DNA of 59,239 nt, the filler included, from Porpidia crustulata (lineage: Eukaryota): the NCBI GenBank assembly GCA_964255105.1. It is 8 parts of 8 records of this genome, joined end to end, with 100 filler letters (N's around TTAATTAATTAA, not from the genome) between each part and the next. Parts side by side here need not be neighbours in the genome. Positions count along the whole stretch, not along the records: positions 37,128 to 44,434 come from CAXUWE010001357.1; 7 more parts are not named here. One strand, given 5' to 3'. The notes below the pieces were generated by a model, which saw only the letters and a list, made by a program, of their open reading frames with translations, was not told the origin of the DNA and did no database searches. Shown here piece by piece: positions 394 through 51,011 of the stretch (position 1 is the first letter of the stretch; every line of letters starts with the position of its first letter). Both the position numbers and the translations under genes were made by a program.

Positions 394-1587
394 GGACAGC
401 TCGGAAACTTTGGGTTATGTTGGAGTCGTACTGCGAAAATGGTGTACGCAGGAAGTAACGAAATGAATATGAAGAATGCCATGGGAGACTGCGCAAATTA
501 ACTACCAACGCAAACATCTTTTGATTCTTATTCCGCACGCGTTTTCATATTCATCCTCCATCTAATCTTTCCTTACATCCATCCACCACCTCCTTGCACC
601 AAACCCCAAATCCCACAGCCACTTCTAAGCGCTTCCCACCGCCCCGCAAACCCACCCGTCGCCCTAAATCAAGCATGAGCGGGTGAACCTTGATAGAAGA
701 GAGGTCACATAAACTTCCAATGCAGCATGTTTGCTACTATCGCAATTATATGATCCTGTAGGCGTATGTTGTCGAAAAATTGCAGGAGCTTCTCTGATCC
801 CACAATTCCCGAAATGACCGTTTAAGCCAATAGAAACATCCCCTCCTGTGGGACATAACGCTTTTTCCAGCGCCCTGTATTCTGACTTGAGCATCATCAT
901 TGGATTTAGGGGAGTTGGAATTCACCGCCACATGGGGCTGAGGGCGCTAAAGATTTTGCCAAATCTTGCTCTTTCTGCCCCCAAGGGATAGATAGCTTCC
1001 TAGTAACAGCAACAGTATCAATGCCAGATCCATACCTAATATTCCAATACCATCATCATCACATCGGACTAACAACGGCGTTGTTCTAGCGTATCGAGAG
1101 GTTGATCAGGAACATCGTGGGATCGTGACTATTATCACCTTGAATGGCTCGAATGGGTGGGCCGATGGACGGAGTAAGATTGAGCCAATCAGTACTTTGA
1201 TGGATAAAACTACTATCACCTACTCGAGCAAACGTTGCCGAGACTAGGTCAACCTCGAGAGCGAAACAATGGTGATGAAGAGAGGTGATGGGATGCTAAA
1301 AGGGGTCAGCAGTACGAAGTTATTCTTAGTGTTTCATGTTCCTCCAACATCGCACGCTGACTGGCTCAACGTCACCTTCGTGTTGGCCTACTAGTCACAA
1401 CCGACTTCGCCTTGCTGACCGACCATCATCGCTCCTTCTTCATTCACTATTCTTCCGTAATCGTATTGACTGCTCCGCAAGTAGCGGCGCTCAGGGGTGG
1501 CCTCAGCATGTTTCATTCACTGCTACTTCGACATAAAGACATCAGCACACGATTCTTCTCTTCTCCTACGATTCTGTCGACTCCACT

Positions 1588-2910
1588 ATGCTGCTTCCCT
1601 GTGTGCGATCCGCTCTTTATGCCGCCATACTGGCTAGCGTGGCTGTCAATGCTGTCAATCTCATTGTCACGGATGAAGGTACGTGGCCGATAACCAAGAG
1701 CAAATGTTATACCGCTGACTGGGGTGCAGCATCGATCAAAGGTGCCGCCGGCACCGTGGCCTATAAGTTGATGACCTATTACACGGGCAACCAGACTGGC
1801 AATGAGGCCAATGTAGGACTTTTACCGAAACCTTACTACTGGTGGGAAGCTGGAGCTATGTGGGGAGGCATGGTGGATTATTGGCATTACACAGGCGACA
1901 CCACCTACAACGACGTCGTGGCTCAGGCCATCCTATCTCAAGCCTCACCGACCAAGGACTTCATGATGATGGCACAGATAAAAGACCTGGTCGCTATCCC
2001 TTGAGAATTATATACATTAAATGTGGTGGCTGACTTGTTCCTCTAGGGCAACGATGATCAAGTATTCTGGGGGCTTACAGCAATGTCAGCTGCTGAACGT
2101 CAATTCCCCAATCCTTCCGCCTCGTCTACCCCGTGGGTTGTGCTCGCTGAAGGTGTATTCAACGATCTGGTCTCACGGTGGAATACTACTCAATGCGGAG
2201 GAGGCTTGAAGTGGCAGTGGGTCGCCACCAACGCTGGTTTTGACTACAAAAGCTCCATCACAAACGGCGGATTCTTCCAACTGGCCGCTCGTCTCGCTCG
2301 TTATACTGGCAACAGCACATACTCTGATTGGGCGCAGAAAGAATGGGATTGGATGACGGCCATTGGACTGATCGACAAGGACCTTCATGTTTACGATGGT
2401 AGCAATGACTTGGATAATTGCTCCCGAATTGACGGCAGTCAGTGGTCTTACAACATGGGCATATTCCTCTACGGCACTGCAGTCATGGCCAATATCACTG
2501 GTGAAAAGTCGGTATGGACGGACCGAACCAAGGGTTTACTCGCCACCGCCACATCGACCTTCTTTTCCCCGTTCCCCAACTCCACATATGTCATGTACGA
2601 GTCTAAATGCGAGAAGCTCAATACATGCAATACCGATCAGTTCAGCTTCAAGGCTTATCTTGGAAGATGGATGATTGCGTCGACGCAGATGGTACCAGGT
2701 ATCTACAACACGGTCAAAGAGTTTGCCATTCGTTCCGCCGAATCCGCTGCTGCCGCTTGTACAGGTGATGAGGATGCTTGCGGGACGAAATGGTATGTTG
2801 GGGTTTTCGATGGCATCACGGGAGTTGGCCAGCAGCTCTCGGCTTTGGAGAATATTCAAGGGCTGCTGGTCAGCTCGACGCAGCCACCAGTGATTGTGCA
2901 CGGTACCTAG
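1588..2910 (+). CDS. Glycoside hydrolase family 76 (Dcw1/Dfg5-like alpha-1,6-mannanase); introns about 1679-1729 and 1990-2046
   Basis: Signal peptide, YYWWEAGAMWG, spliced GNDDQVFWG (catalytic DD), CGGGLKWQ, YKSSITNGGFFQLAARLARYTGN, WSYNMG, DQFSFKAYL. Confidence 0.93.
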
Positions 2911-4026: not shown

Positions 4027-4845
4027 GTGTTAAGTGAAGCCTTTGAAGCAGTCTTCGAAGAGGCAGGAATACGATTTCTTCTTAAAGTCTCAGGTACAAG
4101 GGTCCTATTTCCTGACTTTGGTCCAGGCGGATGGGCACATTTGTTCCTAGTCACAATGATCGGGAATGCGCATGGGCCGTTTGTTCTCACCATAGAATCT
4201 CACTACTCACACTAAACATTTCAACTACGGGGTTTTGCCAATAAGAAAGATCATGACGCAACTCATCCACTGGCAGAGTTGTCCCCGCCGCAGCGGACAT
4301 CAGACATCGTATATATCGACCAAAGGAACGACTCCAGTCTAGGTTTGGCGGTCTTGCATTACTTCAAACGCCAAAGTATACCACGACCCTCCGAACGTCG
4401 ACTTCTCTGACTAGCTTGTGCTATAAGGTACACGCTGTACGCTATATAACTCACCACCCGGACCAGGACAGTCAGTAAAGACCGTAGTCTAACGTGGCTC
4501 ACCTAATCTTCAAACAATGTCTGCTGCGTAATTTAAAGGCCCGAGTCTCAGCTGCGCTAGGATTCCCCAAACCCAAAAGTTGAAAAGCGGTGTAAACGAT
4601 ATGACTAGCCATTATCATTGATGATTACTGGGACTAGCGAGAGTGACTGTACTTCCGGTAGGGATTTATGCAATTATCCCGTTAAGATGAAAGAAAAGAT
4701 GCGCTAAGCTGCATCAAAAGAAGTAGTGAATGTTTGTGTTGATAGCCCATTCACTGATATTATCACACACTTCTCATGAGCATCCACCTTAACAAGTTTG
4801 AACAACAGACAATCCACTCAAACCACCTCTACCACTTACACCACC

Positions 4846-7159
4846 ATGGCAAACGACATACCCCCAAAAGATCACTTGCACCACCTTCAGTCCGCCGACC
4901 AGCTCAAATTATTGGACGAAATTGATAACCTCCGATCGCAGGGAATCAGTCACTACGTCTCACTACCTCAGCTGATCGTCTGCGGTGATCAATCGTCCGG
5001 TAAAAGCTCCTGCCTCGAGGCCATTTCGGGTATCTCGTTCCCGACCAAGGATAACCTTTGCACACGCTTTGCTACCGAGGTGATTCTTCGGCGCGCTCAA
5101 GATGTTAGTGTCGTTGTTTCTATTGTCCCGAGTCAGACAAGATCAGAGGAGGATTGCAAACGTCTTTCGGAATTCCGTCAGACCTTAGATAATCTACAAG
5201 AGTTTCCGGCATTGGTAGACAAGGCAAATAATATGATGGGACTCTCCGGTATTGGGAACGCATTCTCAAACGACGTCTTACGTGTCGAGGTCTCGGGTCC
5301 TGATCGACCTCACCTTACAATTGTGGATCTACCTGGTTTGATACATTCGGAGAACAAAGCTCAGACTTCAGCAGATGTGGCGCTCGTCTTGGGTATGGTG
5401 CGTATGTATATGGACAATAAGAGAAGCATAATTCTAGCTGTAGTCTCGGCCAAAAACGACTATGCGAATCAAGTTATCCTGAAGCTGGCAAAAGAAGTGG
5501 ATCCCCTTGGAGGGAGGACTTTAGGCATTATAACAAAGCCGGACACGCTTTCGGTGGGTTCAGAGAGTGAAGAAGGCTTCGTGGGTCTGGCAAAGAACGA
5601 AGATATTAAATTTCGACTTGGGTGGCATGTTTTGCGCAACCGCGACTATGAGAGTAGAAATAGCACGACCGAAGCTCGTGATATTGCGGAGGGGCTGTTT
5701 TTCTCCCAGGGTATCTGGCAAGACCTTCCTCGTTTCTCAGTAGGCATTACTACGTTGCGAGAGCGATTGAGCAAGGTCCTTTTGGACCAAATTAAAGCCG
5801 AGTTACCGAGCTTGGTAGACGATATCTCAAAGGGCGTTGCAGAATGTCAAGGCAAGCTCACTAAACTTGGAGGCCGTCGTACAACCTTGGATGAGCAGCG
5901 GCTATTCTTACTTCGTGTTAGTGAATCATTCCAGGCTTTATGCCGAGCGGCTGGGGACGGCACATATAGCGATCCGTTCTTTGGAGATCCGTGTCAAGGA
6001 GAAGGTTACAGCAAACGTCTCCGAGCTGTGATTCAGAATCTCAATCTCGAGTATGCAGAGACTATGAGATTAAGGGGTCATCATCGGCAGATTGTTGACA
6101 GCGCAGACGATACTGACTTCTCAATCACAAAGGATGAGTTCATTGACGAGATAAGCGACTTACTAAGAAAGAGCAGAGGAAGGGAGCTTCCCGGAATGTT
6201 CAATCCACTTATCGTCGGCGATATTTTCCACCAGCAGTCTGAACCATGGGATAGTATTGCTCAAGAACATCTTCAAGCAACATATTATGCTGTCAAGAAT
6301 TTTCTAGAGCTCGTTGTAGCCCACCTAACCGATGAAACCGTAGCAGATAATCTTCTGAGAGAGATTCTCAATCCAATTATGAGTCAGAAGATGGCCAGAG
6401 TGCAAGATAAGCTTCAGGAGTTACTAGCGCAAAATCAGAGTGGGCATCCAATCACGTACAACCACTACTTTACAGAGAACATACAAAAGGCGCGGCAGGA
6501 GGGAATGAGGAAGCAACTCATGGGGCGTTTACAGGGGCTCATGAGCAAGTACACGACGAAGCCAGTCTCCAATAACGAATCGTTTGCCGGTCTCAGCGCA
6601 AGTAACTTAACGATCGAAGACTTACTGTCGACCCTTATCCCAAGTAACGAAGCCGACATGGACCGATATGCTTGTTCCGAGATCCTTTTATGCATGGAAG
6701 CATACTACAAAGTAAGTCCGACTTGTCCTCTCCATTGGATGCCAAGACTTATATACCCATCAAGGTGGCTCTCAAACAGGTCGTTGACGGTGTCGCAATC
6801 CAAGCAGTCGAAGCTTGTTTCATCCGTGGTCTCGAAAACATTCTGACCCCGTCTTCAATTCTAGAGATGGATGCAGAGATGGTCAGTCGCATTGCCTCTG
6901 AGCCCGAGGAGCATCAGCATCAACGTGAGCAGCTTACCCGGAAATTGGCGGTTCTGGAAGCGGGCTTGGAGATTTGCAAGCGCTATGTTGGTCGCAGTAT
7001 CACGAGTGAGTCTTTCCTCCGAGGTCTTGAGACTGAATTGACTGAGGCTAACTGACAAACATAGAGCATGAATTCTCGTACGCTAGCAAATTGATTGATG
7101 GCTCTGCTCAGAAGAACGCAGAGGTTAAAAAGTCAGGCGAAGAATATGTACATATCTAG
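4846..7159 (+). CDS. Dynamin-superfamily GTPase, Mx-like fungal clade; introns 6712-6764 and 7006-7064
   Basis: G1 GDQSSGKSS, G2 CTRF, G3 DLPG, G4 TKPD, middle-domain RGRELPG and HPITYNHY, and GED AYYKVALK..VD.VA.QAVE after splicing. The last exon is less certain. Confidence 0.92.
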
Positions 7160-37127: not shown

Positions 37128-37849
37128 GAAGGGTGGGGGTTAGATAGATAGTGATTTGGTTCCTAGTGCTAAACCGTGCGTGGGATGCCGATGCGGTGGA
37201 GACGCTACGTCTTGTGATGAGCGACTGATGGAAGGATAAGGGGGTGGATTTGCTAGCGAGTTGCTTCGCGGCGTTAATCTGCGTTCCTGCATATCTGTGA
37301 ATACCTAAAGAGTGGAAGCTAGACAAATCCATATGGTATGATACCACAGGACTGCACAAAGTGACAATCTACCAGCATGGCGAGGTAGATGCTCGGCGTT
37401 TCCTGGGAACTCCTATTGACGGGGATCTGAATCGATGTTGTAGGATTATTAGTATCCATTCAAGGTTTTTGGATATCTTTGACCTTGGGCGAGAGTAGGT
37501 AGCGGGATAGAACAGTATTGAGCGAATGAGATATCTGGGAGGGGCTCTGGAAGATGGAGCGCGGTAATATTTTGTCTGCAATGTCTGCTGGGAGTATGAA
37601 GGTCCCAGAGGCCACAGGTGTAAGCGCACGGTACTTTACCGCCCCCATCATTGCCGGGGTGAGCCACGGGGATTCTTCGTTGTACCTTTAGAGCAACATA
37701 TTCCAGTCAAGAATCTTCCGACTTGCAATTCCATCCCGGGGGGAATGATTCCATGCTTGAGCCGAAGTCCTGCTTGAGCTGAAATGCAATTTAGACATCG
37801 TTACGGTGCGCGTGGGTGCTCACAAGTCTACCGCTACACCCTGCATTAT

Positions 37850-39550
37850 CTACCCTGCAAGCTCGCTGAACCTCGACAGAAAGTCGGTTTCAAACGATGT
37901 ATACAGAAGCTCGGGCAAGATTGGCACATCACCAGGCGCTTCAAAAACTTCACAGATGTCCGCTGGGAGTTCACGTACAACGCCAATAGCTTCGAGCTCT
38001 GTTCTCCGAGTGGAGGCGGCCATATGCGGACCATATCCCTTTGCTTCTCGATCAATTTCCTCAGCCGCAAGCTCTTTCTTCGTCCATTGGGCATTGCGAT
38101 CGTGCTCACTTAGGTGACGCTTTTTCTTTCTTGCTCGTAGGTATAATATCAATGCCGCTCCGAGTGCTAGGAACACGATCGGAATCGAGATGCCCACTCC
38201 TATCTTTGCACCGGACGAAAATCTTGGATTCGAAGGCATTTGGGCATTGTGGGGATTTGAAGGTAGGCTTACTGCAGCTTCTTTCGGACATGCCGTAGTA
38301 GTTTTGGTGGGTGCATACTGCGCCAGTGTAATGCTAGAAGGTGAGACCTGTGCCATTTGGCTGGCAACCCGATCGAAATTACTCCCTTTCCCGATTAATG
38401 AATTGTATGAATAAGAATCCACGAGACCTGAAACGTTAGTCTATCACTTTGGTACAGACCTTTTGACTTACCGTAAGTGTGGGGATAACTACTCACGAAT
38501 TGGTAGATGAGAACGCCTGACCACGCTCGAGACATCTCACCAAATAAAGTCGGTATTAGAATATCATCACCCATTAGAGGATATGATGCAATGAATTGTG
38601 GAACAGAATAGCTTGGTTTAGTGCCAATTTCGACGCCTACATATTTTAAGCCCAAGAAATCAACCGTTTCGCTTGTTTCGCCGCAATTGAGGTAGCTTAA
38701 AATGACCTCTGGAGTAGAATTTCCTGTTACTCCTGGCGTGCTAGATATAGTGTGAACATAACCAACAGGGATGTATCGATAGTGCTTATTTTCGATGTAC
38801 GCTTTCATATCACGCACGGCGGCTTTGACATATGGTCCAGATTGGTACGTGCTAACGCCACCAGCAGCATCATCCCCAATGATAAAACCTAACAGATTCG
38901 GATAACGCTGCATTGTGTCAATCACGGAAGCAAAGCGATCGTATAACACCTTGTTCCACACCGGATTGGTAATGCTGATGATAAGTCCAGGTGCTACAAG
39001 GTCGACCAAAACATAGATGCCAGCTTTTCCCAGCTGCGTCATGCACGCCGAGTGATTCTGGGATGGATCAATGCTGTATGTGCGAATAATGTTGGTCTTC
39101 AATTCCATCATGAAAGGTATGTGGCGAGAGCAGAGAACGGCGTCATTTAAAGGATCGTAAGCGGTAAGGTTGTAGTCGGGCGGTATCGCGCCGAGATCTG
39201 ACGGGATATCGCCAGTATCTGTAACATAGGCTTCATTGACACTTAAAATCATCCAAATTAAGGCGGGGATGACGATGAAACTTACGTTGGTAGATCTGGC
39301 CTTTGATAAAACTGCAGCCTTCAAGTCAGCGATTGAGATGCTAGCTGCTTAGACAATTGCACGAACAACTGGCTGCCGTTACTTTGGTAGAAGAATTTGG
39401 AGCCCTTGGACCATGGGCAACTGAAGTGAGTGACTGATCATGATGAAAGGCTTATTAGCGGGGAATTACCTTGATAATGATGGGGTCTATTCCTTGGCTC
39501 CGAAGTGTTAGTGAAAGCATGACCGTCGTCAGTAAGACACGAAAATGCAT
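37850..39550 (-). CDS. GH72 (Gas/Gel)-like type I membrane protein lacking the catalytic Glu residues; introns 39405-39469, 39312-39366, 39231-39285 and 38428-38471
   Basis: Spliced product: MHFRVLL..IDPIIIKGSKFFYQSNGSQFFIKGQIYQ..DPL..C.R.IP....TN.IR.Y.IDP...H..CM..L..AGIYV..DL..YVKAAVRDMKAYI..IPVGY..WSG...Y..YGLV, then a TM helix (GAKIGVGISIPIVFLALGAALILYL-RARKKKR) and a cytoplasmic tail. Confidence 0.88.
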
Positions 39551-40218
39551 GTCATTCTTGCCATACATCCTGTCTAAGCAGTCTAAGAAGTCAATTATAA
39601 CGTAGGACAACGGAAAGTAAACGAAATTGCTGCTCGCTTGAGTCTAAGCCCTTTAAAGGGGCAAGGCAATCTGAGCGGCTAGATTCATGATATAATGCAG
39701 GGAGTCTAATCAAGCTGTGGAATATTGGTTTTTGTGAAATGATTGGCATCATACATGACTTATCACCTCTCAACAAGTTCGGCAGTGAGACGTAGGACAG
39801 CTGTGGCACAGAATCCATTATGCCAATGATTCTAGCTCGCTTGTCACATACTCGCATTGGCAGATGACGATTAATTCTTCGCTTTTGATGGGTTGATCTT
39901 TCTTCCAGAATTTTCTTATGAGATTTTGGAGGAAACCCCCGTAGATAGGCAGGCCGCATTACTCTTTTTCTGTTAGATTTTTAGAAACGAAATCCATCTG
40001 TCTGGCCTGTGTATTCGCCGTGCATTGCGCTGATTTACTCATCAGGTCCTAAGGATTGCAAGACAAACGAGAGTGCACTTCATCATTGTGGTTGTTGTCA
40101 ATGGCTATTGGAAGTGATAGAATTTAGATTCACATGCCCTTGCTGCCTGAGACTCCAGCCGCCGCAGTGCGCTTTGGTACATTCCAAAAATGGCCTCTAC
40201 GGCATGAAAATGCACTCG

Positions 40219-42003
40219 CTATGCAGACACCGCCTCCGAAGGCGCAGCAGTATTCCCGTTGATACCAGACCCGTCTCCATTTAACCCTGTAGTCTCATGG
40301 GCCGCTGTGCTGGCCGGTTCAATTCCAGCATTGCGGCTTTCATGGGCAGCTTCTGTATTTGGAGAGTGTATTGTCTCCGGAGCATTTTGAGTAGTGTTTA
40401 GGCTGCTTTCTCCATCCTCGAGCGCGCCATGCTCAACGGCCCCTCCCTTGGTCTCCCTGTGGGGTTTAGCCAAGACTGTCTTCTTTGGCGGCGTTTTTGC
40501 TTCAATCTTTTCGTGACTTTTACTGGCTGAACTCTGGGTAGGACGCATCATCCGCGCCAAGAACCCACCACCTGCCGATTTTGAGCTCGTAGTGCTATCG
40601 CGTGGCTTCGAATTAGGTGGCGCAGTCGATGGGACCGGCAATGATGCGCGCGATGGTCTCGGACGGGGCTGCGATGTCGTAGCTGGGGTACGGTCTTTGT
40701 TGAGCATTGAAGATTTATTAGTAGTTGCGTGAGAAGTACGACTTGAAGGACGGGCTGGCGCTGCACCACCAGTTCTTGCTACTGAAGCGGCTGTGGGCGC
40801 AGTAAGAGAAGCTCGAAGGCGCGCCGGGCGTGTAGGTGACTTTGGGTGCACTGTTGTGGATGGAGAAGTAAGTCCTGTCTGCTTCGTGGGGCTGGTATTT
40901 GTTATGGCGGAAGGCTGGATTGGTTTCGAATTAATTGCAATATGCGCCTTAGTTACCGCGGAAGACCGACCAGGTTTCTCAATGGAAGATTTGGTCGTGG
41001 GCTTCACTGAAGCTTTTTGATTTGGTGAGCTTGTCTTCGCTATCGGCTGTTTCGTTGTTGTTGACGGTTTTATCGCTGGCTGTTTCGTTGAAAGTCCTTC
41101 GTCTTTAGGTGTTTTTGGTGTTTTCGAGGACTTGCTTGTGCTACTTATAGGTGCTACCGCCGAAGATGAGGGAGCCTTCAGATTTTCTTCTGTTGTTATG
41201 ATTGGCGAAATGTGGGTGGACTGTGCGTTTGTGTTTCCTACAGATCTTGTATTCGCCGTACTCATATTGTTCGAAAGGCCGCCTTTTGGCTTCAGGTCCG
41301 TTGGAAGGGTGCTTGATTGTAGTTGGTGTTCGTCAGGGTTCACGATCTCGGGTGTTTTTGAAGGTTCAGACATTGAGATCTCGGGCTTTAGACTGGTCTC
41401 TTGTTCGAATGCATGACCCTTTAACAGATCGCCAAGACTTGTGCGTCGTTCCAGAACAGAACCCTTCTTAGTCAGAGCTTGATCATCTGGCTTGTCTGTT
41501 GAGGGGAGAGCAGCGGTTCCATCCTCGACGTGAGCGACGACCTTGTCCAAATCTATATCTGCCGGATTTCCACTTCCGGGTACATCTGAATTGCTAGGGT
41601 GTATGTGATTCAGCGCCTCCGCAGCGCCTGCACCATTCCCTTCCGTCTCCATGAGTGAAGAATCCGTTGCATCTTTAGGTACACGGGGCGAAACGCCGTT
41701 ACCATTTGCCGTTGTCTTCTCCATCCCTTTGCCGTTCATACTGAGATCAGGATCCAGTTGTCCGTCTCCACCAGTTTTCCCCTCAAAATTGCTGCTTGAT
41801 TTCTTCAGCGAAGAAGCCATTTGGCCACTCCTCTCCACAGAGACGAAGCTTGTCCGCACCTTCGAGAATGGCCGCGAGTCGGTGCTTGTTACACTCTCCG
41901 AGCCAGCTGGAGATCGTCCACGGGATGGTGGTGATACGTGCTGGCTGTTCTCTTCAAATTTCCCCAGCAGTTCACGGACACTATTGGCTGATCGGCCGGA
42001 CAT
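40219..42003 (-). CDS. Low-complexity Ser/Thr/Pro/Lys-rich protein
   Basis: Long ORF of about 594 aa from MSGRSANSVRELLGKFE, with conserved-looking islands SPPSRGRSP, RPFSKVRTSFVSVE, SLTAPTAAS and FLARMMRPTQSSASK. Confidence 0.8.
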   Translation of the reverse strand: MSGRSANSVRELLGKFEENSQHVSPPSRGRSPAGSESVTSTDSRPFSKVRTSFVSVERSGQMASSLKKSSSNFEGKTGGDGQLDPDLSMNGKGMEKTTANGNGVSPRVPKDATDSSLMETEGNGAGAAEALNHIHPSNSDVPGSGNPADIDLDKVVAHVEDGTAALPSTDKPDDQALTKKGSVLERRTSLGDLLKGHAFEQETSLKPEISMSEPSKTPEIVNPDEHQLQSSTLPTDLKPKGGLSNNMSTANTRSVGNTNAQSTHISPIITTEENLKAPSSSAVAPISSTSKSSKTPKTPKDEGLSTKQPAIKPSTTTKQPIAKTSSPNQKASVKPTTKSSIEKPGRSSAVTKAHIAINSKPIQPSAITNTSPTKQTGLTSPSTTVHPKSPTRPARLRASLTAPTAASVARTGGAAPARPSSRTSHATTNKSSMLNKDRTPATTSQPRPRPSRASLPVPSTAPPNSKPRDSTTSSKSAGGGFLARMMRPTQSSASKSHEKIEAKTPPKKTVLAKPHRETKGGAVEHGALEDGESSLNTTQNAPETIHSPNTEAAHESRNAGIEPASTAAHETTGLNGDGSGINGNTAAPSEAVSA

Positions 42004-42942
42004 GTCTGTAGGTGAGGACAATTGTTAGCGAGACCGATACTTTCTGTGGCGTGATACATGCTCTGACTGTTGTGAACTGTATGAAAACATTGTGTTGCTA
42101 GAGATCTGTAAATACAGGCTTGAAACCAAGCGAACCGCATCAGTCGCGCCGCTTGTGGTTTTATGGATGTTTCAAAGTGATAAAACCAGACTCACAATCA
42201 TTCGGCGTGATGCCTAGTGAGCGGTAGGAGTATTGAGAAGTAGACAAGTCTACTGATCAGAGGAAATGCCAAAAGGCGTAGGAGACAAATGTTTTGAGCA
42301 CTGCGTAACTTAGAAAGGAGTGTAATTTATAATTAAATTACATGGTGTATTTTAGGAGATTTGTTTTTTATTCTCCCTAATAATCTTTCTCCACTTGGCC
42401 AATAGATCATCACCACGACATTCCCTTCGTTAACAGCATTGCCTACCTACCTTACCTGGTTCAATGTCAGGCATCACTTGCACCTCCTTCTTCAAGAGCC
42501 GAAGCGACTTGGTGACATCGAGCGCCGGGCCACAATCACGACTGCCAATAATTCCTGAAGCTGCTAAAGCGGTGGTCCCTCCTCCATGATTAAGACAAAC
42601 CTGGAAGAGGGGTCCACTTCTTCTCACACAGCGCTGCATGGCATATACAAAAATGCACGGTTACAACTTAGGAGTCTCAAATCAGAACCTGGGTTTAACT
42701 CAGACCCCTCCTAAACTCTCTCCTTCCCGTCTAGCCTTTCGGCGTTAACCAATATCAATTGATCCATTTTTATCATCTCCCTGAGGATGTCTCATCACAT
42801 GTCCAATGATGAACATTTTACGGGACGTGAGAATTCAATTGGTCAATTCGCTCTGCGAAAAATCCTCTTGTATGGACTAGCGACAATTCCTGACTTCAAG
42901 TCGAATACGAGTCTTCGATATGTCTATTAAATGAAACTACCT

Positions 42943-43038
42943 TACTCGTTCCCACCCCTCACCGGTCCGTCATACCTAGGGTTAGGGTTAATCGACTAGT
43001 CTTGATCGGGGCAGACCGTTGAGGAGTGGGAACGAGTA
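42943..43038. mobile_element. 96-bp MITE-like inverted-repeat element with a telomeric-repeat core
   Basis: 25-bp arms 42943-42967 and 43014-43038 (23/25 complementary), TA at both outer ends, and TAGGGTTAGGGTTA inside. Confidence 0.6.
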
Positions 43039-43575
43039 GGCAGCCAGCCATTGAATCTATCGAGCGAATAAACTTGATTCTCTGCATCTCTTGCCTGCCA
43101 GCCTTACTAGCTGCACTAATCTACAATTGAGGCTGGCTCTCTTTCAGGTGATACAATTTAAACCCCCCCATGGCTCATAGATCGTGGTTGTAGTATTTCT
43201 GATACCTCATAATTAAAGCACTCGGAGCTTGCTTTATAGATAACAGAGGGACTACTACGTCTACGAGACAAGTGAGACACTCTCGGACGCAAAGCCGATT
43301 GGTTGTTCTCAGAGCCCCTGGCAATGCAATGTATGTAAGCGTAGTTTGAACATCAACAATCAACATCACGCGGAGATACGTGTAGGGCTGAAATTGATGC
43401 GCTTGTCCACAGGGCGGAGATTGACGATTCCTAAGGTAGTTAGTTACCTACCACCTACCTACCTAGGTAAGGTATCGATCCGGGATTTGGTTGCAACTCA
43501 GTATTGCTTCTCCCTGCTACACCAACCTAGCACCTGTGAAAGTCACTTTACTCTGATATACCATAGAGCGGTAGA

Positions 43576-44434
43576 ATGTCTGTTCCTAACGGCGAGGAGC
43601 GCCTTTTGGTACTGTACGGACTTGTTCCTAGCCCTAATATAGGTGCCAAAGCTAACAACCAGATCTATACAGCTATGCGGATGTGCATTACTACTTTAGT
43701 GCGCCCTCACCAAGACCGCTCTCTCATAGATTCGACAAAGGATCTTACCTCTACTTATACCGGAACTGTAATGGTGATGGAGGCAGATTGGAAATAGCTA
43801 ATAATGTTGGGAAGCCGGAACTAGATGCTTTTACCGGCAGTGAGTATCAAGGCCTTATGGCCGGGAGCGTCATCAAGCTGATGCCCGCCTGCGTGTAGCT
43901 CTGGAGACACCGACAATACGGCAATCTCATAAGCAGCCAAACTTATGTACTGTAACGGTAGACGGTTACCAGACTCCTCAAGCAGCTACTTCGCTCCCTC
44001 CCAAACATCCAGAGCTTCATTGGCGATTGCCCAACACCGACCCCCGAAACGAGGGTAAATATCTGTTTCGCCTTCACACCCTTGATATATATTTTTGGAC
44101 CGCAGACGACGCGCATTCATTCATCAGCGCGATAAGGAGAATCATTCATCCACAGCAGCTTCAGATTGTAGACGTACCTCCAACTCCAGCAGCCCATGAA
44201 CAGGTCATGAGCCCCGTGGTTCAGCAACTTGAAACCATAGCAATTCAGGATCCGGCCTACCATAATGGACAAACTCGGAATTCTCGAACTGCCTTGGTCT
44301 CGCCTTCGCCTCTCTCCTCCTTGAGCGGACATTCCGGAGCTACTGGAGATGTTGTGCCAAAAGGGGAGACTTCAACCGCTTTCAAACCGCTTGCCTACAA
44401 TCCTGCCGCACCCCCAGCTCCAGAACCTATAAAA
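43576..44434 (+). CDS. Fungal hypothetical protein, 3'-truncated; introns about 43614-43672 and 43840-43898
   Basis: Splicing gives a continuous frame: YADVHYYFSAP..HRFDKGSYLYLY..LEIANN.G.PE.DAF.G..WRLP..DPRNEGKY..RLHTLDIYFWT..MSPVVQQLE..AYNPAAPPAPEPIK. Confidence 0.8.
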
Positions 44435-49823: not shown

Positions 49824-51011
49824 ATGTATACATTCATTGTCATAATTATACCCTCTCTGCTAATATTTTTATTCAACCCTTTAAGAGGTATAGTCATAAC
49901 TCCCAAGGAATACGGCAATGTATGTTAACAATCTGGTCCTAGTTTATGCCGACTGCGAATGCGGTTACTCAGTCAATGCAACTAATTCTCCCCAACATGG
50001 GGTCTATACTGAGGTGTTGGAATCCGATTTCTTTCATCTCAAGGATATAACCAAGAACACCGATTGGATTACAAATGTCTACACGACCAACCCAACCGTT
50101 GCGGATCCGTACGGCCAGAATGCCACAGCAGCCAATATTGTAGATAATTATATCAAGGCAGATTACACTTACACTGGCGAAGGAGCTCTTGGCGGGGATC
50201 CAGGTCTTCAACTCTACGTTCGTGCTGGTGTCCCAACCGATGGCCATATCCCAATTTCAGAAACCGTATCTAGCCGGACCGACATGCTGTACGGTAGCTT
50301 CAGGGCGGCAATGAAGCTGACACCCCAACCAGGAACCTGTAGCTCATTCTTTTGGGTAAGTTTCCTTCTCTGGTGGATCTCTTCGTCGCAATACCAGGCG
50401 TCAATAATTTTGTGCTGATACACTTGCAGTACTTTAGTGACCAGCAAGAACTTGATGTTGAATTTCTCTCCCATGATTACTTGCCAGCCCCAGCAACAGC
50501 AGCTCCTGTCTACTTTGTCAATCATCACGCCCCTGATGCAGCAGGATCCGCGAATACCTTTAATGTCATTTTGTTACCCTTCCGCCCGGACCAAGGCTAT
50601 CACGAATACCGCTTTGACTGGACCCCAGACAAGATCTCCTTCTACGCCGATGGCCAGTGGCTTCTCGACTGGACCACTTTCTCTCCCTCCACTCCTGGCC
50701 CTCTTCACTTGAAGCATTGGAGTACTGGGGCCAACGCTTGGAGCCGCGGTCCTCCACCGCAGGATGCTATCCAAACAATGTCTTACGTCAAAGCCTATTT
50801 CAATACGACCGCCCCTGACCGCGTTGCCGCGTACAACAGCCGATGCAAAGATCCCGCGGCTCCGAACGCTATATGCCAGATACCCGATCAAAATGTCGCG
50901 CCAGATCCAGCAGGGCCGCATGGCGAGAGTTTCTTCTTTTCGTATCAACACAACATGACAGAGGGACAAATAATTTATGGGAAGACTGAGAATGCCGGAT
51001 TGTATGCATGA
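49824..51011 (+). CDS. Glycoside hydrolase family 16, secreted; introns about 49888-49942 and 50356-50429
   Basis: Signal peptide, ADCECGYS, YGSFRA, GTCSSFFW|Y..QELDVEFL (ExDxE), YHEYRFDWTP..FYADG, HWS.G..W..GPP. Confidence 0.92.

Follow-up and report, generated by a model that had tools for sequence, protein, structure and literature searches.

The window analysed here is a stretch of 59,239 nucleotides (nt) of Porpidia crustulata (assembly GCA_964255105.1), assembled from eight parts with filler between them. Its piece at 37128–44434 (CAXUWE010001357.1) carries on the minus strand a gene encoding a glycoside hydrolase family 72 (GH72) domain without its two catalytic glutamates, fused to a transmembrane (TM) segment and a tail. 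An earlier note had proposed an intact five-exon gene for a pseudoenzyme reused as a glucan sensor, and the gene model proved sound: five exons on the minus strand form one open frame of 489 amino acids (aa), interrupted by four introns, all GT..AG. An in-frame ATG upstream at 39568 would add six residues (495 aa) and fits the start of the orthologue better; residue numbers below are counted from the start at 39550. The region 37700–39700 is identical to one Logan contig (0 differences), a check of the assembly only, as both probably derive from the same source data. The features of the locus are as follows.

39470–39568, minus: exon 1, likely signal peptide (judged by eye) and DPIIIK; start at 39550 or 39568
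39405–39469, minus: intron 1, GT..AG, 65 nt, at the same position in orthologues
39367–39404, minus: exon 2, GSKFFYQSNGSQ (translation of the gene model)
39312–39366, minus: intron 2, 55 nt (gene model, orthologue comparison)
39286–39311, minus: exon 3, barrel strand 1, FIKGQIYQ (gene model)
39219–39285, minus: intron 3, 67 nt, GT..AG in the window and GC..AG in L007–L010, L013 and L026
38472–39218, minus: exon 4, bulk of the GH72 (β/α)8 barrel (Pfam, alignment, structure model)
38869–38874, minus: Asp164-Asp165 replacing Asn-Glu (Gas2 N175 and acid/base E176; alignment)
38602–38646, minus: shortened link between strands 6 and 7, with the equivalents of Gas2 Y244, W246 and C247 and helix 6 gone (alignment, models)
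38584–38586, minus: Ser260 replacing the nucleophile (Gas2 E275), with the GC after it lost (alignment)
38428–38471, minus: intron 4, 44 nt (gene model, orthologue comparison)
37850–38427, minus: exon 5, GH72 domain end, linker Cys344, 13-aa stalk, TM segment, tail, stop
38138–38203, minus: predicted single TM helix, residues 373–394 (hydropathy; helix 430–460 in the model of the relative P0006)
38117–38137, minus: basic stop-transfer RARKKKR (translation)
37997–38086, minus: family-specific tail core W-T-K-x-E-L-A-A-x-x-x-D-R-E-A-[RK]-G-Y-G-P-H-M (family alignment, tail search)
37853–37912, minus: C-terminal end LYxSFExDFLxRFxELAG, in the eroded subclade only (window, L007, P0220)
40222–42003, minus: low-complexity protein of about 594 aa encoded by the syntenic upstream gene; matches no Pfam family and lies, on present evidence, outside the system
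43668–44386, plus: partial frame of the other syntenic neighbour, again without a Pfam family (synteny)

Domain, catalytic residues and membrane anchor

Exon 4 matches GH72 (Pfam PF03198) with an E-value of 2e-47 and 162 bits (curated cut-off 25.9), bearing out the Gas/Gel domain recognised earlier, and when modelled alone it yields a (β/α)8 barrel like those of Gas2 and Gel4 (predicted local distance difference test, pLDDT, 82.5; TM-score 0.75 to Gel4). The catalytic residues of Gas2 are E176 and E275, together with Y107, Y244 and Y307 (PMC3627985, available part). The equivalents of R105, R142, N175 and N242 line the GH72 site, and a Glu-to-Gln change at either catalytic position abolishes activity (PMC5753161, available sections). 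As judged by alignment to Gel4 and Gas2, GNEV has become GDDA and [SA]EYGC has become ASYPL in the window protein, placing D164 at N175, D165 at E176 and S260 at E275. The loss of both glutamates claimed earlier thus stands, although the acid/base site is still acidic (Asp165) and only the nucleophile position (Ser260) is non-acidic. The tyrosine triad is incomplete, with Y96 and Y287 kept and the Y244 equivalent absent: the Y.WCG segment, previously described as shortened, is in fact deleted along with both cysteines of one disulfide (C247–C278), leaving four of the six cysteines of the three expected cluster-I disulfides. Exon 4 keeps R94, Y96, D121, P125, W136, Y287, C78, C107 and C227; the barrel fold is retained, but the groove, which the structure check was expected to find preserved, is so only in part. 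The window protein is very probably a GH72 pseudoenzyme of a conserved family, as far as its sequence can tell.

In place of an X8/CBM43 domain and a glycosylphosphatidylinositol (GPI) signal, the protein has one TM segment (residues 373–394, Kyte–Doolittle hydropathy 2.47), the stop-transfer RARKKKR and a tail of 95 aa, close to the 90 or so estimated before. Hydropathy and the basic stop-transfer predict a type I topology, with the signal peptide judged by eye. No GPI signal is seen by hydropathy (the C-terminus is polar and lies 95 aa behind the internal TM segment), no Pfam match to X8/CBM43 and no cysteine cluster occur in the window protein, and there is no WSC or Mid2 head domain, Pfam returning GH72 only and a sub-threshold Psg1 match on exon 5. 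The fusion itself is supported, in that the GH72 domain end, linker cysteine, TM segment and tail all lie within exon 5 and relatives have the same architecture. The linker disulfide is critical for GH72 folding (PMC5753161, available sections), and since exon 5 runs from the last helix region and C344 through the TM segment and tail without an intron, a folded GH72 domain would need the TM exon. The stalk is short (13 aa in the window, 13–47 aa in 17 family rows), with no long serine/threonine (S/T)-rich rod.

The EL(A/E/P) repeats that had drawn attention in the tail are real, with six E[LMI] motifs against 2.1 in shuffles (p 0.008), but they are not distinctive: the same excess is present in 5/9 other TM-tail open reading frames of this genome, Rax2-like proteins among them. 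At least nine other frames of the genome (L045–L053) have an S/T stalk, a TM segment of the xSxGAKxGIG type and a basic stop, and such a cassette of S/T stalk, TM segment and EL tail seems common in filamentous ascomycetes. Two of them, L049 and L051 (G000:C1939), adjoin each other and encode Rax2-like single-pass proteins (domains Rax2_3 and Rax2_2), both with a TM segment and EL tail of their own, as if Rax2 had been duplicated or split there. Confined to the eroded subclade are an amphipathic-looking C-terminus and YxSF (window 37900–37912), which we take to be a possible tyrosine sorting motif.

The GH72-TM family and its tree

A search with exon 4 returned 66 longer relatives, the best 18 of which lack X8; both glutamates are absent in all 18, and 17 have the TM segment and the same tail (the remaining one, P0017, is a truncated model). 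Sorting by motif and tree gave 33 core, 8 eroded, 5 basal and 84 canonical rows, many of the non-canonical ones being fragments and some near-copies. Glutamate occupies both the acid/base and the nucleophile columns in 84/84 canonical Gel/Gas rows and in 0/41 core and eroded rows, in which the acid/base column holds D19 N18 S2 Q1 G1 and the nucleophile column A19 S13 G5 T4. The basal rows have Glu at the acid/base column in one of five and at the nucleophile column in four of five. The C247–C278 pair is absent from all 8 eroded rows and present in all 33 core rows, and the core family has kept the fold, the disulfides and part of the groove despite the lost catalytic residues.

Of 278 domains, 55 were chosen for a tree (LG+C20), in which the 22 family rows are monophyletic (97/96); among them the basal rows branch first and the 18 rows without the nucleophile group together (98/94). 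The window is one of six rows in an eroded subclade (100/100) whose neighbours are Sticta and Lobaria-type rows (97/90), and it carries the other marks of the family: the GD[DN] motif, a small residue at the nucleophile and the W-T-K-x-E-L tail core. Named members come from Villophora, Teloschistes (three), Fulgogasparrea, Physcia, Sticta (three proteins), Lobaria, Candelaria, Mycoblastus and Pseudevernia, all of which we take to be lichen-forming fungi (taxonomy looked up for two). From its place among them, the fungus of the window is likely to be lichen-forming too. Sticta has three copies (P0019, P0020, P0080) and Mycoblastus two (P0105, P0334), one of the latter keeping both glutamates with the Asn-to-Asp change already present.

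Across 25 full-length rows, identity is 72% in the tail core, 60% in the barrel and 39% in the stalk. Searching with the tail alone found nine proteins among 174 candidates of 298–951 aa, all of this GH72-TM family. One member, P0324, looks by indirect signs like a spliced transcript: its complete form of 543 aa lies on nine Logan contigs (≤3.2 kb), and its cluster also contains fragments that read through introns. The family is thus conserved and apparently an undescribed pseudoenzyme subfamily of lichen fungi. We found no description of a TM-tailed GH72 protein lacking the glutamates in the literature, supplements aside (including PMC7526373, PMC11758075 and bioRxiv 10.64898/2026.06.16.732702, as far as their available text goes). 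The available part of bioRxiv 10.1101/2024.08.16.608140 names GH72 once, as secreted enzymes, TM proteins being excluded from that secretome.

Among 37 fetched metagenome loci, six (L007–L010, L013, L026) are syntenic orthologues that share all four intron positions and, in the five checked, the neighbours; they form one closely related group (97.7–99.9% identical). Against the intact L007, the Nei–Gojobori method (NG86) gives a synonymous divergence (dS) of 1.38 and a ratio of non-synonymous to synonymous divergence (dN/dS) of 0.22 (bootstrap 0.15–0.29), rough values as dS is near saturation. The ratio is 0.14 in the tail and 0.17 in the N-terminal barrel, with 0.36 and 0.13 in the two syntenic neighbours. 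Selection has therefore been purifying, not near neutrality, and together with the conserved architecture this upholds the earlier argument against simple decay. In L007 alone, upstream synteny is broken by two frames (L007:289–1197 and 2014–2547) that are, by our assumption, transposase-like.

Readings of the protein's role

The pseudoenzyme reading is well supported, and a glucan sensor is plausible on sequence grounds. The account we favour, tentatively, is that of a glucan-binding protein, anchored in the membrane and without catalysis, whose conserved tail serves to report on the inner wall or to organise it. A single-pass protein without catalytic glutamates, predicted to reside in the plasma membrane, would use the retained half of the groove to bind β-1,3-glucan, or else lichenin, in the inner wall of the fungus itself, and its wall-binding state may be passed by the tail to an intracellular partner. 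As the stalk is only 13–47 residues long, the GH72 domain would sit close to the membrane, which is why we expect a self ligand; lichenin is the second candidate because a Neurospora GH72 acts on it (PMC8777122, available part). The tree suggests an order of events in which TM segment and tail, with the Asn-to-Asp change, came first, the acid/base residue was lost early and the nucleophile later, the loss of one disulfide and helix 6 being the last step, in the window's subclade.

Several observations weigh against this account. No Pfam family or partner is known for the tail, which is of low confidence in the structure model of P0006 and whose EL repeats are common to single-pass proteins of fungi. 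N242, Y244, W246, C247–C278, R284 and helix 6 are missing from the window copy, in which more of the groove has gone than in related proteins; the Y107 position is Cys in 3/7 eroded rows, and our division of residues between donor and acceptor subsites is itself presumed. The C-terminal barrel has a dN/dS of 0.35 against L007. Five of the six sister-lineage loci are disabled by stops or frameshifts (a stop in L008, a common stop in L009/L010, a one-base deletion in L013, two frameshifts and a stop in L026), with a ratio of non-synonymous to synonymous polymorphism (pN/pS) of 0.55; one lineage within the window's own subclade can thus do without the gene, and a frame that is intact, as in L007, is by itself no proof of present function. 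Truncated forms also predominate in the cluster of P0324. As for the ligand, no observation favours non-self over self glucan, the non-self option having come from the earlier note. A core member would be a better test subject for a receptor role than the eroded window copy. The sister group holds several independent loss-of-function alleles with intact neighbours (four neighbouring frames are stop-free in the 5–6 loci covering them), which amount to natural null alleles.

Possible but unlikely is a non-catalytic tether or scaffold keeping glucan, or the enzymes that build the wall, at the membrane, its tail providing sorting signals only. The residue pattern fits it equally well, the tail lacks an enzymatic or known signalling domain, EL repeats occur in unrelated single-pass proteins, and inactive GH72 members regarded as structural exist (Pga4, Gas3; PMC5753161, available sections). 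Against it stands the tail core: no other part of the protein is as conserved, and it is family-specific, beyond the needs of short sorting motifs.

We give somewhat less credence to the idea that the family is functional but the window copy, with selection on it relaxed, is a relic, or that its ectodomain no longer binds glucan. It would account for what the eroded subclade has lost (one disulfide, most of the stalk and helix 6), for the disabled sister loci (the intact-looking L007 belonging to a lineage that is losing the gene) and for the many truncated cluster members, and derived residues are more numerous on the window branch than on that of L007 (44 vs 22, p 0.009). Yet against P0220 the imbalance is slight (49 vs 39, p 0.34), the frame and all eight splice sites are intact at a dS of about 1.4, the dN/dS of the window branch is estimated at about 0.3, and exon 4 is still modelled as a barrel; a neutral period, if any, is limited to about the last 3% of the branch (a rough figure from the lesion rate of the sister lineage).

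That the protein is a receptor in lichen partner recognition, perceiving non-self glucan from the photobiont or other microbes, is improbable. The lichen-forming habit of all named clade members and a conserved, family-specific loop after strand 1 speak for it; the short stalk, purifying rather than diversifying selection, mostly single copies where checked, and the existence of GH72-TM forms without glutamates in non-lichen fungi speak against it, as do the presumably differing photobionts of the family's genera. A still-active enzyme of changed chemistry, with Asp164/Asp165 as acid, is very improbable: Asp164 is near-invariant, Asp fills the acid/base column in 19/41 rows and 4/5 basal rows keep the nucleophile Glu, but all 41 rows lack an acid at the nucleophile column, within two residues before it or one after it, Tyr244 is lost in 41/41, the acid/base residue is Asn, Ser, Gln or Gly in 22/41, and Glu-to-Gln changes are inactivating, as cited above.

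Forms beyond the lichens and comparison with known systems

We surveyed 210 fetched homologues of ≥400 aa, a sample biased by the queries used. Both glutamates are kept in 139/143 of those with a GPI-like end vs 8/44 of those with a TM segment and tail; outside the lichen clade, 9/17 TM forms lack at least one. A second clade without glutamates keeps X8 (P0157, P0159, P0141, P0192, P0110, P0150, P0117; named rows from Lophiotrema, three, and Lentithecium) and has added a TM segment and EL tail in four full-length rows, and single losses occur in Lojkania, Apiospora, Penicillium and Vermiconidia. Parsimony requires six changes, but the pairs available to the independent-pairs test are too few. 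Recurrent Glu loss in TM-tailed GH72 of further ascomycetes suggests that the pattern extends beyond the lichens. It is a possible, if doubtful, further step to see here an ancient lichen glucan receptor derived stepwise from a Gel-type enzyme which, with repeated independent GH72 pseudo-receptors in ascomycetes, would constitute an unrecognised class of fungal glycan sensors, maybe used in thallus building or partner perception.

Public records label family proteins '1,3-beta-glucanosyltransferase gas1/gel3' or hypothetical, and because of such labels lichen carbohydrate-active enzyme (CAZyme) counts include proteins incapable of GH72 chemistry. For surface glycan perception by lichen fungi there is now a named candidate, a single-pass protein whose ectodomain is soluble, and the family provides natural intermediates, with and without the nucleophile and with and without the disulfide, as well as a lineage with natural null alleles. 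The same genome has four further GH72 genes, each with NE and E[YT]GC motifs and a hydrophobic C-terminus. Frames at window 1537–2907, 4780–6843 and 49900–51008, presumably GH76-like, dynamin-like GTPase and GH16-like, lie on other contigs and have no link to the GH72-TM gene.

Compared with the GH72 β-1,3-glucanosyltransferases (A. fumigatus Gel4, 8pe1/8pe2; S. cerevisiae Gas2, 2w62), the window protein lacks both glutamates, N175, Y244 and X8, and has a TM helix and cytoplasmic tail where they have GPI. Gas3, Pga4, Phr3 and Pga5 keep the catalytic glutamates. They resemble the window protein, predicted from its sequence to be inactive, as GH72 members without detected activity or phenotype, and differ in that no TM-tail form is described for them in the available text of PMC5753161 (section 3.1.3). 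From the Wsc/Mid/Mtl wall sensors the window protein differs in its ectodomain, a dead glycoside hydrolase barrel, in the 13–47-aa stalk of its family and in a tail that is unrelated as far as tested. Those sensors carry a long rod. The likeness to them lies in the general plan, these sensors being type I membrane glycoproteins built of an ectodomain, an S/T stalk, a TM segment and a tail (PMC5753161, available sections).

The kinase or protease-cascade output of tobacco CHRK1 and insect GNBP/βGRP, proteins of other folds or families, has no counterpart in the window protein. CHRK1, a dead GH18 receptor kinase, and GNBP/βGRP, dead GH16 proteins, are likewise dead glycosidases reused for glycan perception. 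Clostridial RsgI is bacterial, has an anti-sigma output and the opposite topology, and we claim no homology. It does share with the window protein a glycoside hydrolase barrel (GH5/GH10 modules) carried on a membrane protein, which in RsgI serves as a polysaccharide sensor (PMC6852018, available part).
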